A DNA stretch of 64,000 nucleotides from an uncultured Clostridia bacterium. GTDB lineage: Bacteria; Bacillota; Clostridia; TANB77; CAG-508. Below the pieces are notes generated by a model, which saw only the letters and a list, made by a program, of their open reading frames with translations, searched no databases and was not told the DNA's origin. The stretch is from the NCBI GenBank assembly GCA_947627935.1, contig CANQXY010000001.1, positions 15,495 through 79,494 on the forward strand, read 5' to 3'. The position numbers were made by a program, and so were the translations under genes. Positions 11,704 through 28,403 of the stretch are shown here, piece after piece (position 1 is the first letter of the stretch; each line of letters begins with the position of its first letter).

Positions 11704-11733
11704 AAAGGCACATATATATGTGCTTTTTTATTA
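11704..11733 (+). terminator. Intrinsic terminator of rbr
   Basis: The hairpin aaaaggcacatatatatgtgcctttt is followed by a T-run. Confidence 0.5.
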
Positions 11734-11779
11734 TGTATGGTTAATATTTCTAGTGATTATATAATTAATAATAGTTTAT

Positions 11780-11930
11780 GGGGGTGTAATGGTTTCGACA
11801 TTATACTAGAAATATAAATAGCGAGTAGTGGATATTTACAAAGCTATATTTAATTTGAGTATGTTTGTTTATGCAAATTAATGGAAGGTATAGTGGACAG
11901 GAGTTCTATTCTCCTCACTTTCATCAATGA
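11780..11930 (+). pseudogene. ssrA': Internally deleted tmRNA (ssrA) remnant: about 57 nt of the 5' end joined to about 90 nt of the 3' end, with a degenerate acceptor end
   Basis: The 5' segment ggggtgtaatggtttcgacattatactagaaatataaatagcgagtagtgga is identical to 12908-12960. The 3' segment ...ggacaggagttctattctcctcactttcatcaa matches 13128-13259 with substitutions. The tag ORF and pseudoknot region are absent. The upstream promoter region is also partly duplicated or deleted. Confidence 0.55.
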
Positions 11931-12024
11931 GGTATCTGTTCAAACTTTTTTTAGTTGTTGAGGCTATTCCGATTATAGATAAATTGTACAAATGTTCAAA
12001 ATATATTGAAAAATAAATAAACAA

Positions 12025-12058
12025 TGGCACACATATAAAAATGTGTGCCATTGTTTTA
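12025..12058. terminator. Bidirectional hairpin terminator (aatggcacacatataaaaatgtgtgccatt) downstream of the reverse-strand Cys-cluster gene
   Basis: A perfect 13-bp stem is flanked by T and A runs. Confidence 0.45.
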
Positions 12059-12124
12059 TCCATTAGTAAGGATTATGCTCAGTAGAGCTCCTCTTTCTGA
12101 TAAGATAATGTAACTTACATCATC

Positions 12125-12721
12125 TTATAATGAACATGGAATTTCTTTGTCATTGAAGTATTCTGCCAAATCGTGTAACAGTCTTTGATGAGATTTCCAC
12201 TCATAACAGCATTTATCAATACTATAATTAGAATTACATCTCCTTTCTGGTACTCCAAATACAGAATTACATTCATTTGATGGAATTAAGAGTCTTCCAC
12301 CAGTTGGCCTGTGCTCGTAATCAAGTTTGCATCCTTTTTCTGTTAGTAAAATACAAGGACTTCTTTCATATCCGCAATCTACAATAGGAGCATTTTGATT
12401 TCGTGCTCTAAGAATATAAATACCAAAATCTTCATAAATCATTTCTCCATCAACAAAGTCAATAGAAATATATCCTTTTTCTAACTCCTTTTTCAAAAAA
12501 TCGAAAGAAATTTCTTCAAAGTCGTCAGGGCTAAAATGACAGCCGCAGCGTTTACAGCATTTGCCACCACATTCAGCACAAATTTCGGTATTAACATTTT
12601 TAGATACAGAATAGTCTTTGCTTATACTCCGATAAGGCAATGTAGGATACATTAATTCTTCAAACCATCTGTGAAATTCATCTTCATTCATACCAAAAGC
12701 ATTCATAGTGTAGTCCTCCAA
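12125..12721 (-). CDS. YkgJ-family cysteine-cluster protein (CxxCGxCC putative zinc/iron-chelating domain), nested between the ssrA remnant and intact ssrA
   Basis: The 198-aa ORF has the CAECGGKCCKRCGCH motif plus further Cys pairs, and nearby hairpin terminators. There is no obvious link to neighbouring functions. Confidence 0.5.
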   Translation of the reverse strand: MEDYTMNAFGMNEDEFHRWFEELMYPTLPYRSISKDYSVSKNVNTEICAECGGKCCKRCGCHFSPDDFEEISFDFLKKELEKGYISIDFVDGEMIYEDFGIYILRARNQNAPIVDCGYERSPCILLTEKGCKLDYEHRPTGGRLLIPSNECNSVFGVPERRCNSNYSIDKCCYEWKSHQRLLHDLAEYFNDKEIPCSL

Positions 12722-12907: not shown

Positions 12908-13259
12908 GGGGGTGTAATGGTTTCGACATTATACTAGAAATATAAATAGCGAGTAGTGGATTCTCGTTGGCCACTTTAATAAACGGGAAAATAAATATAA
13001 ACGCTGATAAACAAGAATTAGCATTTGCTGCCTAAGAGCGGCAACGTCTTACTAGATGTCCCACACATTTAGTAAAGGCGATTATTTAGTGGGAAACAAA
13101 GCTACTTTTGCTTTAGGAGTAGTGGGTATTTATAAAGATATATTTAATTTGAGTATGTTTGTTTACGCAAATTAAATGAAAATAAATAACAAACTGCACT
13201 CGGAGAATTTTATATGGAAGGTATAGTGGACAGGAGTTCGATTCTCCTCACTTCCACCA
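12908..13259 (+). ncRNA. ssrA: tmRNA (transfer-messenger RNA, SsrA)
   Basis: The 5' GGGGGUG pairs with the 3' CACUUCC-A-CCA in a tRNA-Ala-like acceptor stem with G3:U70. A T-arm GGACAGGAGTTCGATTCTCC is present. An internal tag ORF ends ...GATAAACAAGAATTAGCATTTGCTGCCTAA (…DKQELAFAA*). The length is 352 nt. Confidence 0.9.
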
Positions 13260-13417
13260 ACAACGTATCTGTTCGAACTAATAGAACAGGATATATAAAT
13301 ACCACTCTGAAAAAGGGTGGTATTTTTTAGTTTTATTTTCAGTATGTATTACGTCATCCCCGAGTTTTGTATCATTGGTCAAAACTCATAGGGGGTTAGG
13401 ACTTTTGTCAGATTAAA
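13260..13417 (+). repeat. About 160-nt repeat (copy A) immediately 3' of ssrA: terminator hairpin plus a conserved inverted-repeat box GAGTTTTG-N10-CAAAACTC
   Basis: It is roughly 85% identical to 21445..21608, which follows tRNA-Thr. A partial copy is found at 14690..14768. Confidence 0.6.
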
Positions 13418-13595
13418 AAGCCCTTTATATAAAAAATAAATTTGTCTATTTTTTTACTTTAACATAAATTTTATTTCCTATTATAAAGAAAAAACAATAA
13501 TTTTCAAAGTATAAAACTCTTTAATTATCCTTAATAAATTGCAATAATTACATTTATATGTTAAAATAATAGCAATTAAAAAATAAGGAGAAATT

Positions 13596-14600
13596 ATGCA
13601 AGAAAAAAATATAGGAAAAATTACTACTGAAAGTTGGACATATCTTGATGGAGTACTTATTGAACATAAAGAAAAAGGAACACGTCAATCTGAATGGAAA
13701 TTAGCTGAACGTGAAACTGAAAATATTAGCATTGGTATGATAAATCCTGCTTATATAGAGATTAATGAGATTCAAGATAAGGATGATGAGTACAAAAAAA
13801 TTAAAAAATTCTTAAATAAATATGTAGAAAGATATGCAGAAAAAAATAGTATTCCAATTGAAGATTTAAGTATTGAATTTATAAATTATGGTAAAACTCA
13901 ACTTGTATATGTATTATCTGAAAGAAATGGTAAAAGAGTTACTTTACTAGTTAAGCAACCTGCTGTTCAATTAGGCAAAGTTCATCAAGAGGCTCAAAAT
14001 CTATGTGCTTTAAAAAAGAAGGATAAAAATGTTGTTGCACCAATAGATTATTTTCAACTTGGAGACCAAGAATTATATACAACTCGATATATTAATCAAG
14101 CTAGATGTATTGCTAGTTATGGCTCTTGGGGAATGTATGTTCCAGAACCATATTATAGATTTGAGCCATTTACACCAGAACAAGAAAAAATTGTTAATTC
14201 TTGTATGATTGCTAAACTTGTTAGCTTGTATGATTTTGAAAATCAAGAAGGAATAAGTTCTTGTAAATTAGGTGGTGGAGATTTCATGTTACCTAAAGGA
14301 TGGGAAAAAGAACCTCTAACTTTTGAAAATATTTTTAATAAATTGTATTTAACAGCTGCTAGAGAGAAAATAAAGTGTTCTTATGATGAATATATATCAA
14401 TTATAAGAGATGAATTTTCAAGAGCGACAATATCTGAAAATCAAAAAAATTTAATTATAAATTTAAGAGGTAGAGTTCCAATTAAAATTGAAAACATTAA
14501 CTCTGGAATTCAATTAGGACAAGCAATTATACATAGCAAGAAATATTGTCATTTAGAAAATAAACTTACAGGAAGAAAAGAAGATGATTTTGAACGTTAA
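13596..14600 (+). CDS. Hypothetical protein (334 aa), cargo of the ssrA-associated mini-element; weak protein-kinase-like features (Gly-rich loop NYGKTQLVY, VTLLVK)
   Basis: A long ORF with a good RBS (aaggag). It lies between repeat copy A and the right-end remnant. No confident family assignment can be made from the sequence alone. Confidence 0.6.
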   Translation: MQEKNIGKITTESWTYLDGVLIEHKEKGTRQSEWKLAERETENISIGMINPAYIEINEIQDKDDEYKKIKKFLNKYVERYAEKNSIPIEDLSIEFINYGKTQLVYVLSERNGKRVTLLVKQPAVQLGKVHQEAQNLCALKKKDKNVVAPIDYFQLGDQELYTTRYINQARCIASYGSWGMYVPEPYYRFEPFTPEQEKIVNSCMIAKLVSLYDFENQEGISSCKLGGGDFMLPKGWEKEPLTFENIFNKLYLTAAREKIKCSYDEYISIIRDEFSRATISENQKNLIINLRGRVPIKIENINSGIQLGQAIIHSKKYCHLENKLTGRKEDDFER

Positions 14601-14659
14601 AATTTATCTATAATTTTTGATATATTATAATAGGGATTTAGTGGTAAGATTGTATGATA

Positions 14660-14768
14660 AATTGTGAAGTTGTAAATATCTACGTCGTTGGCACCAATAA
14701 TTTATCTATTCTAACTATAGAACAGATAACTAGAAATATCATCCTGAAAAACTAATATTTTTAATTAT
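14660..14768 (+). repeat. Right-end remnant of the ssrA-associated element: the conserved motif AAGTTGTAAATATCTACGTCGTTGGCACCA followed by a degenerate copy of the first ~75 nt of the 160-nt repeat
   Basis: Hand alignment: 24 of 30 nt match 22101..22130. The following ATAATTTATCTATTCTAACTATAGAACAGATAACTAGAAATATCATCCTGAAAAAC aligns with 13263-13330 and 21448-21515. Confidence 0.45.
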
Positions 14769-21368: not shown

Positions 21369-21444
21369 GCTATTATAGCTCAGTTGGTAGAGCAACAGAT
21401 TCGTAACCTGTAGGTCGGCGGTTCGATTCCGCCTAATAGCTCCA
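21369..21444 (+). tRNA. tRNA-Thr (anticodon CGT)
   Basis: Hand-folded cloverleaf: acceptor GCTATTA/TAATAGC, D-arm GCTC-AGTTGGTA-GAGC, anticodon loop TTCGTAA, T-arm GGCGG-TTCGATT-CCGCC, discriminator T and an encoded CCA. Confidence 0.9.
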
Positions 21445-21608
21445 ACAACGAATTCGTTTGAACTTTATAGAACAGATATATAAATATCATTCTGAAAAAG
21501 AATGGTATTTTTTTATTATTTTTATTTTCAGTATGAATTACATCGTCCTCGAGTTTTGAACATTGGTCAAAACTCATAGTGGGTTAGGACTTGTGACGAG
21601 ATCAAAGT
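21445..21608 (+). repeat. About 160-nt repeat (copy B) immediately 3' of tRNA-Thr, homologous to the sequence 3' of ssrA
   Basis: It is about 85% identical to 13260..13417, including the terminator hairpin (tcattctgaaaaagaatgg + T-run) and the GAGTTTTGAACATTGGTCAAAACTC box. Confidence 0.6.
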
Positions 21609-21819
21609 TTGTATCTGGCGAAAAAATATAAAATTACTTTGAAAAATTTTATCAAATATAAATTTGTAGTGTTTACAATTGAAGAAATTGAGAGAAATAA
21701 AATTGAATTGTATTTATTCAATAGTGTAAAAATAAATATTATAAATTTCAAAGAAAAAACACTATTTTTTGTCAAAAAAAGAGAGAGCTTTAATAAAAAC
21801 TCTCTCTGTTCCTATCTTG

Positions 21820-21966
21820 CTAAAAGCCATATTCATCGTGCTTCTTTTTTCTTGCTTCAAATGGGTCTTTTTTCTGTTTTTGAGTCTCTTTCATCCACTT
21901 TTGGTATTTCTCCCAATCTTTTTGTCTTTCTTCTGCTCTACGATTTCTTGGTAAATTGACTTTCAT
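21820..21966 (-). CDS. Small highly basic protein (48 aa: MKVNLPRNRRAEERQKDWEKYQKWMKETQKQKKDPFEARKKKHDEYGF)
   Basis: Hand translation of the reverse strand. The RBS aggagg lies 6 nt upstream. A perfect terminator hairpin (aaaaagagagagcttt-attaaag-ctctctcttttt) lies directly downstream. The overlapping forward ORFs 21609..21959 and 21769..21954 are considered spurious. Confidence 0.4.
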   Translation of the reverse strand: MKVNLPRNRRAEERQKDWEKYQKWMKETQKQKKDPFEARKKKHDEYGF

Positions 21967-22087
21967 GATGGAACCTCCTTAATTTTATTTTCCTTATTGG
22001 GAATATATATATAATACCATATATTTAATATATTTACAACTTTTGTTAGAAATAATACCCATAAAATGATTTATATTTGTATAAATT

Positions 22088-22140
22088 CACTAAAAGAGAA
22101 AAGTTGTAGATAACTACGACGTCCGCTCCATTAAGTAAAA
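22088..22140 (+). repeat. Putative right-end remnant of the tRNA-Thr-associated mini-element (AAGTTGTAGATAACTACGACGTCCGCTCCA), related to 14660..14700
   Basis: 24 of 30 nt are identical to the ssrA-side motif. Upstream it shares TGTATAAATT/TGTATGATAAATT. GCTCCA resembles the tRNA-Thr 3' end (AGCTCCA). Confidence 0.35.
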
Positions 22141-22556
22141 TCGTTGGACTTTGGCAAAAGTATTGATAAATCAACTGTAAAGGGTTGTTTTTTTGATGCC
22201 TTTAATTTTAAACGAAAGGATTGTGTGAGATGATTACTGTAATCAAAAAGGAAATTGAGTTAGAATTGAACAAAGAAAAACCAAAATTGATTAAATTAGT
22301 TGCAGTAAAAAGTGATAAAAATTTTTCAATAACTAAACAAGAAAATTATAAAAGTGGTGCAATAATAAATAAAGAAAAATGAAAAAATAATAGGAAAATT
22401 TCTGTTCAAAATGATTTTTGTATTCCATTGGTACTCTATCAAGCACTGAATTTTCCTCTATAGTCAAAATAATAAACGAATAAAAAAATATTTTATGGTT
22501 TAAATATTATGAAATAAATTAAAGATAACCGGCAACAACATTGCCGGTTTAGAGGT

Positions 22557-25225: not shown

Positions 25226-25525
25226 ATGGGTGTTTTTAATTTATTTTCTAAGGATTTTAAGTGTACACATAATGATGAATATCCTCGGTATGAAAAGAAT
25301 ACTAGTCACATTAAATTGGTTGAGCCAAGTGTAGGAAGAATTGTTGAACTTCAGATAACTGAAGAGGATGTACGCTTTGAAAAAATATATAGGAATTCTT
25401 TAAATACCTATGTAAAATGTCTTATGCGGTATGGCGTACAATCTGAAGTAACTGATAAAGGAGTTCGACTTACATTTCCTAATGATGATATAGCAGAGGA
25501 TACACGTAAGATTTGGAGAAAATAA
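25226..25525 (+). CDS. Hypothetical protein (99 aa)
   Basis: A strong RBS (aaggagg) is present. Two tandem hairpins lie in the 5' UTR. No motif was recognised. Confidence 0.5.
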   Translation: MGVFNLFSKDFKCTHNDEYPRYEKNTSHIKLVEPSVGRIVELQITEEDVRFEKIYRNSLNTYVKCLMRYGVQSEVTDKGVRLTFPNDDIAEDTRKIWRK

Positions 25526-25668: not shown

Positions 25669-26154
25669 ATGAGAAATATAAAATGCATTATAATAATTGT
25701 TTTATTAATATTAACAATGGCAGTAGGATATTCAGCATTTGCAACACAGTTAAATGTAAGTGGAACAGCTGAAATTATAGGAGAATGGAATGTAAGGATT
25801 ATTAATATAGAAGCAAAAAATGTTTCTGAAGGTTGTAATCCTGGAGAGCCGCAATATACTAATACAAGTGCAACATTTGAAGCTAAGCTAATAAAACCAG
25901 GAGATTCAATAACATATCTAATAACAATTGAAAATTCTGGAACTATTGATGCAACTTTAGATGATGTAATTTTTAAAGAAGAAGAAAATGGATCAGAAGC
26001 TATTAAATTTACAACGACAGGGATTGCTCCTACTTTAGAACCAGGTGCTCAAACTACATTAAATGTAAAAATTGAATATGATTCAAAAACTACTGAAGTT
26101 CCATCAATAAAAACGAAAACAATAACTGGTATTATAAATTATGTACAAAAATAA
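25669..26154 (+). CDS. Secreted protein with SipW-cognate-type signal peptide (TasA/camelysin-like small beta-sandwich protein)
   Basis: The N-terminus MRNIKCIIIIVLLILTMAVGYSAFATQLNVSGTAEI resembles SipW-dependent signal peptides. The protein is 161 aa and beta-rich. It lies directly upstream of a SipW-type peptidase gene. The RBS is aaaggagg. Confidence 0.55.
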   Translation: MRNIKCIIIIVLLILTMAVGYSAFATQLNVSGTAEIIGEWNVRIINIEAKNVSEGCNPGEPQYTNTSATFEAKLIKPGDSITYLITIENSGTIDATLDDVIFKEEENGSEAIKFTTTGIAPTLEPGAQTTLNVKIEYDSKTTEVPSIKTKTITGIINYVQK

Positions 26155-27368
26155 TGGGAAAAATTTTATTTCCCATTATTTTTAAAACTGGAGGTACAAA
26201 GATTAAAAACATGAAAAATAAAAATATATTACTTATTATAGTTTTTTATCTATTTATAATAATTATATTAAATATTACAAATTATATATTTTATAATGCA
26301 GTAAATACGTTATTTTGGATGCTTATGCTAATTTATTTAATATGGGATATAAAAAATTCATATATAAGATTTAAAAATAATATAAAGTATATTACATATA
26401 TGATTATAATTTCAGCCATTCATATTATTATATATTTATACATTGGATTTTTATTAGGATTTTCAAAGAGTCCATATAGTCATCAAATATTAACAATACT
26501 AATAAATATTTTGCCTAAAATAATTATTATTTTTGGTATTGAAATAACAAGAACAGTAATTGTATTAAGAAATAAAAATAATAAAAAATTATTAGTAGTT
26601 ATAACAATACTACTTATATTAGCAGAAGTAAATTTTAATATGTTAATTACTACATTTCCAGATAAAGAATTACTATTCAAATATATTTGTTCTACAATAA
26701 TACCATTAATAACTTGTAATGTTTTATATACATACTTAACATTAAATTGTTCTTATTTAATAGTAATAATTTATCGATTATGTAAGGAATTAACAGTTTT
26801 TTTATTACCAATTTTACCTAATACAGATTGGTTTGTAACAGGCAGTTTTGAAACATTATTATCAGCAATAATTTATTTTATTTTTAAATATAAATTTTTT
26901 AAAGAGAAAAATCATGTTAAAGAAAAAATGAAAAATTTTTTTGAAGAAATGAGTTATATAATAACATTTATTTTATTATTTTCTTTAATATGTTTTATGT
27001 TAGGGTTATTTAAATACGAATCAATATCAATTCTTTCAAACAGTATGGCTCCTTATTTTAACAGAGGAGATGTTGTTATTTTCAAAAAAATTAATGATAG
27101 TGATTTAAGAAATATTCCCAAAAATTCTATTATTATTTATAGTATAGGAGATAAAAATATTGCTCATCGTATTGTAGACAAAATAGAAAAAAACAATAAT
27201 GTATTGTATCAAACAAAAGGTGATAACAATAATATTTCAGATATGAAATTAGTAAAAATAAATCAAATTAAAGGAGTATATGTTTTTCACATTAAATATA
27301 TTGGGTTTCCATCGATCTGGTTATATGAGTATTTTAATAATGAAAAAGCAGAAGTAAAAATAAAATAA
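26154..27368 (+). CDS. Signal peptidase I (S26, SipW/archaeal-ER type Ser-His) fused to a ~300-aa N-terminal polytopic membrane domain
   Basis: The C-terminal region carries ILSNSMAPYFNRGDVVIFKK (box B Ser), IAHRIVDK (His general base) and TKGDNN (box E). The N-terminal 300 residues are highly hydrophobic with about 8 predicted TM helices. The start may instead be the ATG at 26211. Confidence 0.65.
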   Translation: MGKILFPIIFKTGGTKIKNMKNKNILLIIVFYLFIIIILNITNYIFYNAVNTLFWMLMLIYLIWDIKNSYIRFKNNIKYITYMIIISAIHIIIYLYIGFLLGFSKSPYSHQILTILINILPKIIIIFGIEITRTVIVLRNKNNKKLLVVITILLILAEVNFNMLITTFPDKELLFKYICSTIIPLITCNVLYTYLTLNCSYLIVIIYRLCKELTVFLLPILPNTDWFVTGSFETLLSAIIYFIFKYKFFKEKNHVKEKMKNFFEEMSYIITFILLFSLICFMLGLFKYESISILSNSMAPYFNRGDVVIFKKINDSDLRNIPKNSIIIYSIGDKNIAHRIVDKIEKNNNVLYQTKGDNNNISDMKLVKINQIKGVYVFHIKYIGFPSIWLYEYFNNEKAEVKIK

Positions 27369-27380
27369 GGAGGAAATTTT

Positions 27381-28403
27381 ATGAAAAATGATAAAAAATA
27401 TATTAATATTTTTATTATTAATATAATTATGTGTATAATTGGTATTTCTTGTATAGTATATAATTTTTATATTAATAAAAATAAAGTATCTATTTATAAT
27501 TATAAAATACAAAAAAGTGATGATTATGAGGTTTTATTAAAACCAAATAATTTTTATGAAACAGAAACACTTAAATCTGGTTCTTATTATGCTTCAAATT
27601 CTATTAATAGTTATATTATAAATTTAAAACATGATTTTTTAGGAGATAAAAAAGCTAATTTAGAATATGATTATAATATTGATGCCTATTTAATTGGGGT
27701 TGTAAAAGATAATGATAATCAAGATAAAGAAGTTTGGAATAGAAAGTTTATTCTTAAAGACAAAACTCATGATAAAAAAGATAATATAGATAAAAACTCT
27801 ATCAATCAACAAGTAACTATAGATTATGAGTATTATAATAATTTAGTACGCTCATATGAAAAAACATATGGAATTACAATAGACAGTGTTCTAAAAGTAA
27901 GATTCGATATTTCTTATATTATTAATTTAGATAAATATACTGATAAAGTAGAAGATTTTATAGAATTAGAAATACCAATAACTAGTACAATAACTGAAAT
28001 AAAAGAAAATTATGAAAAGGATACAAATGGAGAAATTATAAAAGAGCAAGAAAGTAAAAAAATAAAAGAAATTTTACTGTATGTTATTGGAGGAATAATT
28101 TTTATAATATCATCAATAATTATTGTATTTATTATAATAAAATATATAAAAATTAAAGAAAAACAATATGATTGGAAATTAAGACGAATTTTGAGATATT
28201 ATAAAGATATAATAATTACTATTAGTAATGAACCAAATTTAGATAATTTAAAAGTAATAAATATATCTGTCTTTGAGGATTTGATTGATTTAGCTGAACA
28301 AACTCAAAAAAGTATTTTATATTATAAAAGTATTAATAGAGAGGAAAGTAAATTTTTTGTTATCATCGATAACTATGTATATGTTTATTTATTAAAAACA
28401 TAG
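27381..28403 (+). CDS. Hypothetical two-TM membrane protein (N-terminal anchor, ~190-aa extracytoplasmic domain, second TM, ~100-aa cytoplasmic tail)
   Basis: The RBS is aaggagg. TM segments are at residues ~10-30 and ~218-243. It appears to be in an operon with the SipW fusion. Confidence 0.55.
   Translation: MKNDKKYINIFIINIIMCIIGISCIVYNFYINKNKVSIYNYKIQKSDDYEVLLKPNNFYETETLKSGSYYASNSINSYIINLKHDFLGDKKANLEYDYNIDAYLIGVVKDNDNQDKEVWNRKFILKDKTHDKKDNIDKNSINQQVTIDYEYYNNLVRSYEKTYGITIDSVLKVRFDISYIINLDKYTDKVEDFIELEIPITSTITEIKENYEKDTNGEIIKEQESKKIKEILLYVIGGIIFIISSIIIVFIIIKYIKIKEKQYDWKLRRILRYYKDIIITISNEPNLDNLKVINISVFEDLIDLAEQTQKSILYYKSINREESKFFVIIDNYVYVYLLKT

Follow-up and report, generated by a model that had tools for sequence, protein, structure and literature searches.

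What is the short segment of DNA that follows the tRNA-Thr(CGT) gene in the 64,000-nucleotide stretch analysed here (the window; contig CANQXY010000001.1 of an uncultured Clostridia bacterium, 25% G+C), and why does it open with the same repeat that follows the tmRNA gene, ssrA? Comparison with relatives from gut genomes and metagenomes makes it likely that this segment is a non-autonomous deletion derivative of a family of integrative and mobilizable elements (IMEs) of gut Clostridia, akin to a cis-mobilizable element (CIME), which has kept a site resembling an origin of transfer (oriT). The view taken in the first-pass annotation of this DNA, that the segment is a bounded, non-autonomous derivative of a mobile element and belongs to the same family as the element at ssrA, is thus borne out, and the parent elements can now be described.

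The left repeat was indeed identified at both sites where it had been reported. The ssrA copy (copy A) and the tRNA-Thr copy (copy B) align in three gapless blocks with 84-88% identity over ~165 nt, and a blastn comparison of 21421-21783 with 13236-13572 yields an E-value of 1e-40. In a global alignment, the similarity begins in the T-arm, peaks from the CCA on and fades past ~165 nt. A profile built from 18 related copies recognizes both (13254-13420, E = 7e-52; 21439-21609, E = 3e-41), along with a partial third copy at 14690-14757. The right-end match of 24 of 30 positions reproduces as well, although the ssrA-side coordinates originally given for it (14671-14700) are off by 4 nt: the segment matching 22101-22130 is 14667-14696. 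This match far exceeds chance: among 2x10^7 simulated positions of first-order Markov sequence with the composition of the window, two reached at least 22/30 and none at least 23/30, and the two sites are each other's sole match at 23/30 or better on both strands of the window. The strings noticed upstream of both motifs, TGTATAAATT and TGTATGATAAATT, turned out to be parts of a longer conserved right module, R, for which profile searches give E-values of 5e-13 at 22059-22130 and 7e-11 at 14606-14696. Rfam searches at the gathering threshold and at a relaxed E-value yielded no family for either the repeat or the right motif.

Copies of the repeat are also present elsewhere, whereas the first-pass annotation had named a lack of further copies as the outcome that would speak against its proposal. 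A scan of species-representative genomes (one genome per species) with a 21-base core pattern recovered 19 loci, all in metagenome-assembled genomes (MAGs) of uncultured Clostridia from the rabbit gut, and a metagenome scan added at least 120 loci, many of these from the human gut; the combined set used for mapping included 139 loci, with up to 8 kb available for each rabbit-MAG mini-element locus. The left repeat is located 3' of the CCA in Leu, Arg, Thr, Met, Lys, Cys and Tyr tRNA genes and in tmRNA genes, the targets in the rabbit MAGs being Leu-TAG, Leu-CAA, Leu-TAA, Met, Thr-GGT, Thr-CGT, Arg-ACG and Arg-CCT; in 21 aligned copies, the repeat begins exactly after the CCA. In 11 of the 19 genome loci, R follows the left core on the same strand at a distance of 0.6-1.6 kb, and most of the others are short of flanking sequence. 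The genome loci each harbor a different single gene between the left repeat and R, in either orientation. The right ends often directly abut another, often partial, left end, in tandem arrays, as at 14667-14757 in the window.

Most of the metagenome loci reveal that the '160-nt repeat' of the first-pass annotation, although real, is not one unit. In the profile, it splits into L1 (positions 3-82) and L2 (positions 109-174), which in these loci are separated by 0.7-2.7 kb. The canonical order across the 139 loci is a tRNA or tmRNA gene, L1, a small open reading frame (ORF), a large serine recombinase (LSR) of ~640 aa, L2, a Mob_Pre relaxase of ~470 aa, cargo, and R, as exemplified by L177 (5.4 kb), by L191, which occupies tRNA-Thr(CGT), and by L082 (Table 1). 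A gene with Resolvase and Recombinase domains is present at the attL-proximal position in more than 100 relatives, so that the intact, recombinase-encoding relatives whose existence was anticipated are found among the full-length metagenome loci. No zinc-ribbon domain was detected by Pfam in the 643-aa recombinase of L082. The best plasmid-borne relatives of the LSR share 25-29% identity, and those of the relaxase domain, 36-38%. The family appears to be undescribed; our literature searches brought up no report of IMEs that use a serine recombinase at tRNA 3' ends.

Comparison of the mini-elements with the autonomous copies L082, L087 and L177 pinpoints a 2.6-kb deletion that fused L1 to L2 (...ATCATCC|CCCGAG...). 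The left part of the junction ends past the terminator, just before the ribosome-binding site of the small ORF, and is joined to CCCGAGTTTTG, the start of L2. The same junction is common to all fused copies, including both copies in the window (~21548|21549 in copy B), and ~25 other mini-elements at many tRNA genes. No relaxase gene was found beside any of the 21 fused copies with enough flanking sequence (21/21). Intermediate stages, with truncated recombinase or relaxase genes, are seen in L191, L123, L133 and L071, and some of the mini-element cargo is homologous to the cargo of autonomous elements. The window element retains attL and attR, encodes no integration or transfer genes and has a mapped origin by deletion, as expected of a CIME; an integrase of its own, the hallmark of an autonomous IME, is missing in the window element and present in its relatives.

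The boundaries of the element follow from the symmetry of its attachment sites. Where R abuts L1, the attP site can be reconstructed as ...ATCTACGTCGTTGG-CA-CCAATGACGTATCT..., an inverted repeat of 11-12 bp centred on CA; the palindrome at the join reads TACGTCGTTGG-CA-CCAATGACGTA, with its centre at tRNA positions 72-73 (CA, or CT in tRNA-Thr). We located the att centres with a script anchored on the GTTCGAAC motif and found that attL and attR agree in their centre dinucleotide in 19 of 20 complete elements, within a shared identity of 5-7 nt. This limits an earlier claim about the terminal GCTCCA of R: the crossover region is common with the tRNA 3' end, and there is no long mimic of that end. 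In L062, which occupies a non-tRNA site, the ends share just G-CT-C (2-4 nt), which pins the position of the crossover. The 23 nt preceding the R centre are conserved across elements irrespective of the occupied tRNA and therefore represent element DNA, not a copy of the tRNA. Together, these comparisons point to a crossover at tRNA positions 72-73. In the window, the centre inferred from the attP symmetry and from the comparison of attL with attR is C72-T73 of tRNA-Thr (21440-21441), so that it lies, with the CCA (21442-21444), within the final five bases of the gene; CT is also the centre of attR (22126-22127). On this basis, the element is the 690-bp segment 3' of tRNA-Thr, with a deduced extent of 21442-22127. 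Its predicted circle junction would be GACGTCCG-CT-CCAACAACGAATTCG, and the restored chromosomal site would be CCTAATAG-CT-CCATTAAGTAAAATCG. The ssrA element is centred on CA (13255-13256 and 14692-14693), and because of this difference, the two copies in the window are not interchangeable at one site.

The discriminator base varies among closely related tRNA-Thr(CGT) genes, with A73 in L191 (703-778) and L115 (2176-2251), and T73 in L084 (4415-4490) and the window. Integration may sometimes rewrite base 73, the second base of the putative crossover dinucleotide.

The first-pass annotation also proposed that elements at different tRNA-like genes share a recombinase. This appears to be the case for a serine recombinase, not a tyrosine integrase: LSRs that are 100% identical are associated with tRNA-Arg(ACG) and tRNA-Leu(TAG), and one LSR cluster (at least 90% identity) spans Leu, Arg and tmRNA sites. 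CT ends (Gly, Thr) or AG ends (Gln, Asn) characterize other LSR clusters, such that the clusters sort by N72-N73, and the central dinucleotide (CA, CT or AG) would accordingly sort the elements among tRNAs. Both arms of attP contain a distal GTTCGAA/GTTGTAA motif 22-23 nt from the centre, and the T-loop GTTCGA is located 19 nt from the centre in every tRNA. The T-loop is therefore likely to be the recognition motif of attB, which would explain how one enzyme can use many tRNA genes. In serine integrases, the offset of the motif bound by the zinc-ribbon domain differs between the attP and attB half-sites, which would fit such recognition of the T-loop.

The second part of the fused repeat, L2, has the hallmarks of a transfer origin. 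In 91 of the 119 unfused copies, L2 directly precedes the Mob_Pre gene in the same orientation, and the median gap is 2 nt. The family sequence is CCCC-GAGTTTTG-loop-CAAAACTC-ATA-GGGGG/TTAGGAC. The oriT of plasmid pMV158 consists of a hairpin followed by 8 nt (ATAGTGTG) and a G/T nick (/TTATAC), with a longer stem that carries a 3-nt ATA bulge in its right arm (PMC5863519). L2 of copy A folds into a 4-bp outer stem, the ATA bulge and an 8-bp inner stem (z = -4.1). Because of its position before mob, the pMV158-like layout and this fold, we interpret L2 as a putative MOBV1-type oriT. In copy B, the inner inverted repeat (21551-21558/21568-21575) is followed by the ATA bulge and GTGGG/TTAGGAC, and by analogy with pMV158, the nick is predicted between 21583 and 21584; no relaxase gene accompanies this L2, and its outer stem is disrupted.

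The remaining features of the window element are listed in Table 1. Within L1, the P' arm CCAACAACGAATTCGTTTGAACT (21442-21464) is accompanied by a degenerate hairpin 1 and by a terminator that replaces that of the tRNA, a stem-loop at ~21482-21510 followed by a T run. Folding of 21445-21515 yields the 12-bp terminator hairpin and lacks hairpin 1; the pairing of the terminator stem is maintained through compensatory changes between copies A and B. R comprises the hairpin GATTTATA-TTTG-TATAAATT, the P arm ...GTTGTAGATAACTACGACGTCCG (to 22125), the CT centre and the CCA (22128-22130). The sole credible ORF of the element is the gene for a Lys/Arg-rich 48-aa protein that was noticed previously on the minus strand (21820-21966); this gene and the 12-bp terminator after it (21807-21780) hold up, and it is preceded by an AAGGAGG ribosome-binding site, read from the sequence, and by a TG-extended promoter-like site (22039-22011). 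The 48-aa protein matched no Pfam family and has no homologue other than itself among 5.8 billion proteins.

Table 1. Coordinates of the features of the window and the layout of the full-length relative L082
Feature	Position	Strand	Size or role	Basis
tRNA-Thr(CGT)	21369..21444	+	target gene	ARAGORN; Rfam tRNA, 70 bits
L1	21442..21515	+	element-derived half of attL	nhmmer profile positions 3-82; alignment of 21 copies
L2	21546..21600	+	MOBV1-type oriT-like module	position before Mob_Pre in relatives; pMV158 layout; folds; junction
Cargo expression unit	21780..22039	-	orphan 48-aa Lys/Arg-rich protein	ORF call; promoter and terminator scan
R module	22059..22130	+	attR	nhmmer E 5e-13; 24/30 vs 14667-14696; 27/30 vs L062 right end
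Left end of second, older element	22128..22382	+	L092-type subfamily	local alignment to L092
Sister mini-element at ssrA	13254..14757	+		ARAGORN; Rfam; L and R profiles; folds; centre comparison
L082: tRNA-Leu			target gene	
L082: L1			left module, part 1	
L082: small ORF			94 aa	
L082: recombinase			643 aa	Resolvase 2e-32 (PF00239); Recombinase 5e-20 (PF07508)
L082: L2			left module, part 2	
L082: relaxase			472 aa	Mob_Pre 6e-13

To the right of the element, the DNA is homologous to the left end of another LSR element. The region 22128-22260 aligns with the region after tRNA-Thr in L092 (score 95 against 26 +/- 4.8 for shuffles, z = 14), across the P'-like arm, the terminator, the ribosome-binding site and the opening codons of the small ORF that, in L092, lies before the recombinase. 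In the window, these correspond to the arm CCATTAAGTAAAATCGTTGGAC, a terminator at ~22173-22195, a ribosome-binding site and a truncated small ORF (22230-22382), the 50-aa product of which is only weakly similar to those of small ORFs in other elements; the relationship is established by the DNA-level alignment. Given this homology to the left end of L092, the mini-element apparently landed in the attL of an older resident element, one from another subfamily. We searched the window for the right end of the older element using an inverted-arm guess and the second right-end family described below, and found none. As stated in the first-pass annotation, the tRNA-Thr site is the start of extra DNA: in L191, L129 and L068, ftsY is located 0.2-0.4 kb from attR or from the tRNA-Thr flank, and in the window, ~7.3 kb (22131 to ~29430) intervenes. 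This DNA, which plausibly represents the body of the older element, contains no LSR and no MOB gene. At 25669-28403, it encodes a cluster of a DUF7507 (Ig-like) protein, an S26 signal-peptidase-like protein (weak match) and a DUF5305 protein; a 99-aa ORF at 25226-25525 has a homologue with 38% identity within the cargo region of L176. In L068 (787-2100), the orientation of tRNA-Thr(CGT) and its mini-element relative to ftsY is the opposite of that in the window and L191, which may reflect a recombinase-mediated inversion.

The sister element follows the tmRNA gene at 12908-13259 (ARAGORN and Rfam) and consists of L1 and L2 (13254-13420), a 334-aa cargo ORF (13596-14600) without a Pfam match, and R (14606-14696); right after this R, a partial L1 at 14690-14757 marks an earlier insertion. 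Separately, the region 11720-12721, 5' of the real ssrA, contains an internally deleted pseudo-ssrA (11780-11926; Rfam tmRNA, 55 bits). The ssrA promoter region is duplicated along with it, and an attL-type remnant, ATGAGGTATCTGTTCAAACT, comes after it. Between the pseudogene and ssrA, there is a Cys-rich 198-aa ORF (12125-12721, minus strand) with no Pfam match. A pseudo-copy on the upstream side of ssrA is not what simple integration predicts.

Several further features of the family emerged from the mapped loci. A second right-end family, TTTTTTCGCATACCTGYTYCGTAATCG-CT-CCA, is present in L113, L117, L129, L135, L172, L196 and L197 (for example, L129 3431-3462) and pairs with the left arms CCA-TAATGCGTTTTCGTCGAAC and CCA-AAAGGTAAAATCGTCGCAC at Gly, Thr, Gln and Asn tRNA genes and at tmRNA genes; the superfamily is thus broader than the L/R pair of the window. 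The hairpin of R, GATTGATA-TTTG-TATCAATC, covaries, with GATTTATA/TATAAATC in L072 and copy B of the window, and so does a second stem (GCTAAC/GTTGGC, GCTGAC/GTTAGC, GCCAGC/GTTGGC). R modules also carry an outward-facing promoter (TTGTAT/TTGCAA, 15-17 nt, TGaTATAAT), as in L078 (2767-2862), L070 (5418-5517, minus strand) and L191 (3611-3713). This promoter would read through attR or attP into the next terminator and might be analogous to the joint promoter of the IME Tn4451. In L064 (5248-5420), two truncated L2 copies are located head to head beside tRNA-Leu(TAA), which suggests a rearrangement between elements.

Taken together, these observations suggest the following history. In the parent elements, the LSR would recombine the near-palindromic attP (...CTACGTCGTTGG-CA-CCAATGACGTATC...) with the extreme 3' end of a tRNA or tmRNA gene. 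With a 2-bp crossover at positions 72-73, the element would re-supply the CCA and a terminator to the tRNA, and the original CCA and native trailer would end up at, and to the right of, attR. In the window copy, the 2.6-kb deletion took away the LSR together with the small ORF, and the relaxase gene disappeared in a separate, second loss, leaving attL, the terminator, the oriT-like hairpin, one orphan 48-aa gene and attR. The resulting mini-element presumably entered the attL of an older resident element, producing the tandem. Further movement would require an LSR, a relaxase and a conjugative pore provided in trans. The window copy is probably now inert because several of its sites are degenerate.

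Some observations weigh against this scenario. Copy B is more degenerate than copy A: ~4 mismatches separate its P' arm from the consensus, hairpin 1 has disappeared, the outer stem of the oriT-like module is interrupted and the outward promoter of R (22030-22100) has decayed. The symmetry of attP, clear for the CA consensus, is weak for the arms of the CT subfamily, which includes the window copy. No LSR or MOB homologue was detected in the element or anywhere in the 64-kb window. A single L1-L2 junction combined with varied cargo calls for extra steps, namely, recombination with autonomous relatives and loss of mob, and these are only partly documented (L071). The case for recombination, excision and nicking is built on comparative sequence throughout. 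No pair of empty and occupied sites was recovered for the exact tRNA-Thr locus, the organism being rare in databases: the 48-aa and 50-aa proteins were found just on contigs of up to 1.5 kb from the same strain, and the upstream 444-aa protein is not on record. The sole support resembling an empty site is cross-species, a 79% match over 63 nt between the R flank of L070 and the unoccupied tRNA-Leu trailer in L072.

How alive is the family, then? The window copy could instead belong to a class that is still active, with protein-less units, each made of attL, oriT, one gene and attR, that an LSR and a relaxase move in trans, as MITE-like (miniature inverted-repeat transposable element) or cassette-like carriers that shuttle single genes among tRNA loci. 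We regard this as possible but somewhat doubtful. Several findings favor it: at least 15 species-level MAGs have the one deletion junction, at tmRNA and at tRNA genes for Leu, Arg, Thr, Met, Lys and Tyr, with four copies in a single MAG and two or three in the window; each copy has a different gene, in either orientation; and neither the att half-sites nor the oriT core has been lost, their conservation being at least 84-88%, with terminator stem pairing kept by compensatory changes. However, neither an excised circle nor an empty site came to light, the 19 rabbit-MAG mini-element loci (up to 8 kb each) and the window contained no LSR or MOB gene, the Thr copy of the window is damaged in its P' arm, hairpin 1 and outer oriT stem, and the spread could be old and vertical, with homologous recombination among the copies. 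A coupled proposal, that living, protein-free carriers moved in trans coexist with a 'pan-tRNA' LSR that reads the T-loop at a constant distance from a freely variable central dinucleotide (positions 72-73), the site being set by these two bases only, is similarly tentative.

Readings that do without a serine recombinase fare far worse. A classical tRNA-gene islet formed by a tyrosine integrase, with the right motif as a displaced copy of the tRNA 3' end, seems highly improbable, even though insertion at the 3' end of tRNA or tmRNA genes and tandem arrays are typical of such islets (Islander, PMC4383910) and the right end closes with (G)CTCCA like a tRNA. It is contradicted by the Resolvase/Recombinase-domain genes next to attL in more than 100 relatives, by the symmetry of attP about the dinucleotide, and by the 23 nt before the R centre, which are element-specific and the same at different tRNAs. 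Displaced tRNA fragments usually measure at least 15 nt, and the direct repeat here is just 5-7 nt, or 2-4 nt in L062. We also considered that the repeat might be a non-mobile tRNA trailer/terminator module under concerted evolution, combined with an unrelated regulatory site, or else a product of another class of element, such as an IS200/IS605-type PATE, an IS110 bridge-RNA element or an integron attC cassette. In favor of these options, the repeat places a seemingly functional terminator at the very point where the tRNA requires one, its hairpins are conserved, with compensatory changes, and genes occur as single 'cassettes'. They nevertheless appear very unlikely: the cargo varies between ends that form a constant L/R pair, these modules also border LSR and relaxase genes, the trailers of unoccupied tRNA genes in these loci are unrelated, and no Rfam family matches. 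The conserved ORFs are the LSR and the MOB relaxase, with no conserved ORF of the size of a Y1, TnpB or DEDD transposase; the conserved non-coding module maps to the region upstream of mob; and the core 15-mer has 57 matches in viral contigs, all of 18-19 nt and attributable to chance. A tRNA-like minihelix RNA at R and Xer/dif modules were dropped once full-length relatives showed an LSR and Mob_Pre flanking the same modules.

Under the favored interpretation, a deletion derivative of an IME, the puzzling repeat is explained as attL, a terminator and an oriT-like site, and the islets beside tRNA-Thr and ssrA are decay products of one IME family, abundantly represented in the gut metagenomes of humans and animals (at least 120 loci). 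For the window itself, the implications are modest, one orphan 48-aa gene and the marker of a tandem insertion hotspot upstream of ftsY. The association of identical LSRs with different tRNA genes bears more generally on site choice by serine integrases and on the build-up of accessory genes next to tRNA genes in gut Clostridia. If carriers moved in trans do exist, they would form a MITE-like or integron-like layer on top of the IMEs, with single genes shuttled among essentially any tRNA or tmRNA gene.

IMEs, CIMEs and tandem accretion at tRNA genes are all established concepts (PMC5704250; PMC12084326). Compared with the CIMEs and accretion tandems formed by the integrative and conjugative elements and IMEs of Firmicutes (Guedon et al. 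2017, PMC5704250), the window derivative differs in that the reviewed tRNA-site IMEs use tyrosine integrases and its parent family a serine recombinase, and in that it keeps an oriT-like site and has same-junction copies spread over many tRNA genes. Site-specific IMEs with serine recombinases usually disrupt dispensable genes (PMC5704250). The prototype of IMEs that combine an LSR with a MobV relaxase is Tn4451, which, like Tn4453, is found in Clostridia (C. perfringens, C. difficile) and recombines between 2-bp identical sequences without long direct repeats (PMC5704250). Unlike the present family, Tn4451 selects its targets with low specificity, tRNA genes not being among them, and the window copy encodes neither of its two proteins. 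In Tn4451, the oriT recognized by TnpZ (RS_A) is located just upstream of the relaxase gene, and the promoter of the recombinase forms across the joint of the circular intermediate.

The pMV158 oriT recognized by MobM (PMC5863519) resembles L2 in the succession of hairpin, 8 nt and G/T (ATAGGGGG/TTAGGAC in the family consensus, ATAGTGGG/TTAGGAC in copy B), in the longer outer stem with a 3-nt ATA bulge in its right arm, and in the location immediately upstream of mob. It differs in unrelated stem sequences and in a loop of 4 nt as opposed to 9-10 nt in the family, and the L2 of the window is not followed by a mob gene. The ssrA islands of Dehalococcoides (DsiB; PMC3146451) are likewise serine-recombinase islands at the tmRNA gene that form tandem arrays and include gene-less, CIME-like units; unlike the present elements, they insert in the T-loop with a 20-bp direct repeat, encode a CcrB-like and a second small recombinase, lack a relaxase and oriT, and have ssrA as the sole target. 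Finally, the tyrosine-integrase islands of the Islander database (PMC4383910) share with this family the use of tRNA and tmRNA 3' ends, the regeneration of the gene by the element and tandem stacking, and are set apart by the class of the recombinase and by the absence here of a displaced tRNA fragment, with only 5-7 nt shared around a 2-bp centre. Against this background, what appears to be new at the family level is a serine recombinase that leaves intact the many tRNA genes whose final bases it uses, a centre dinucleotide that sorts the elements among tRNAs, and dispersed, gene-less derivatives that keep an oriT-like site.

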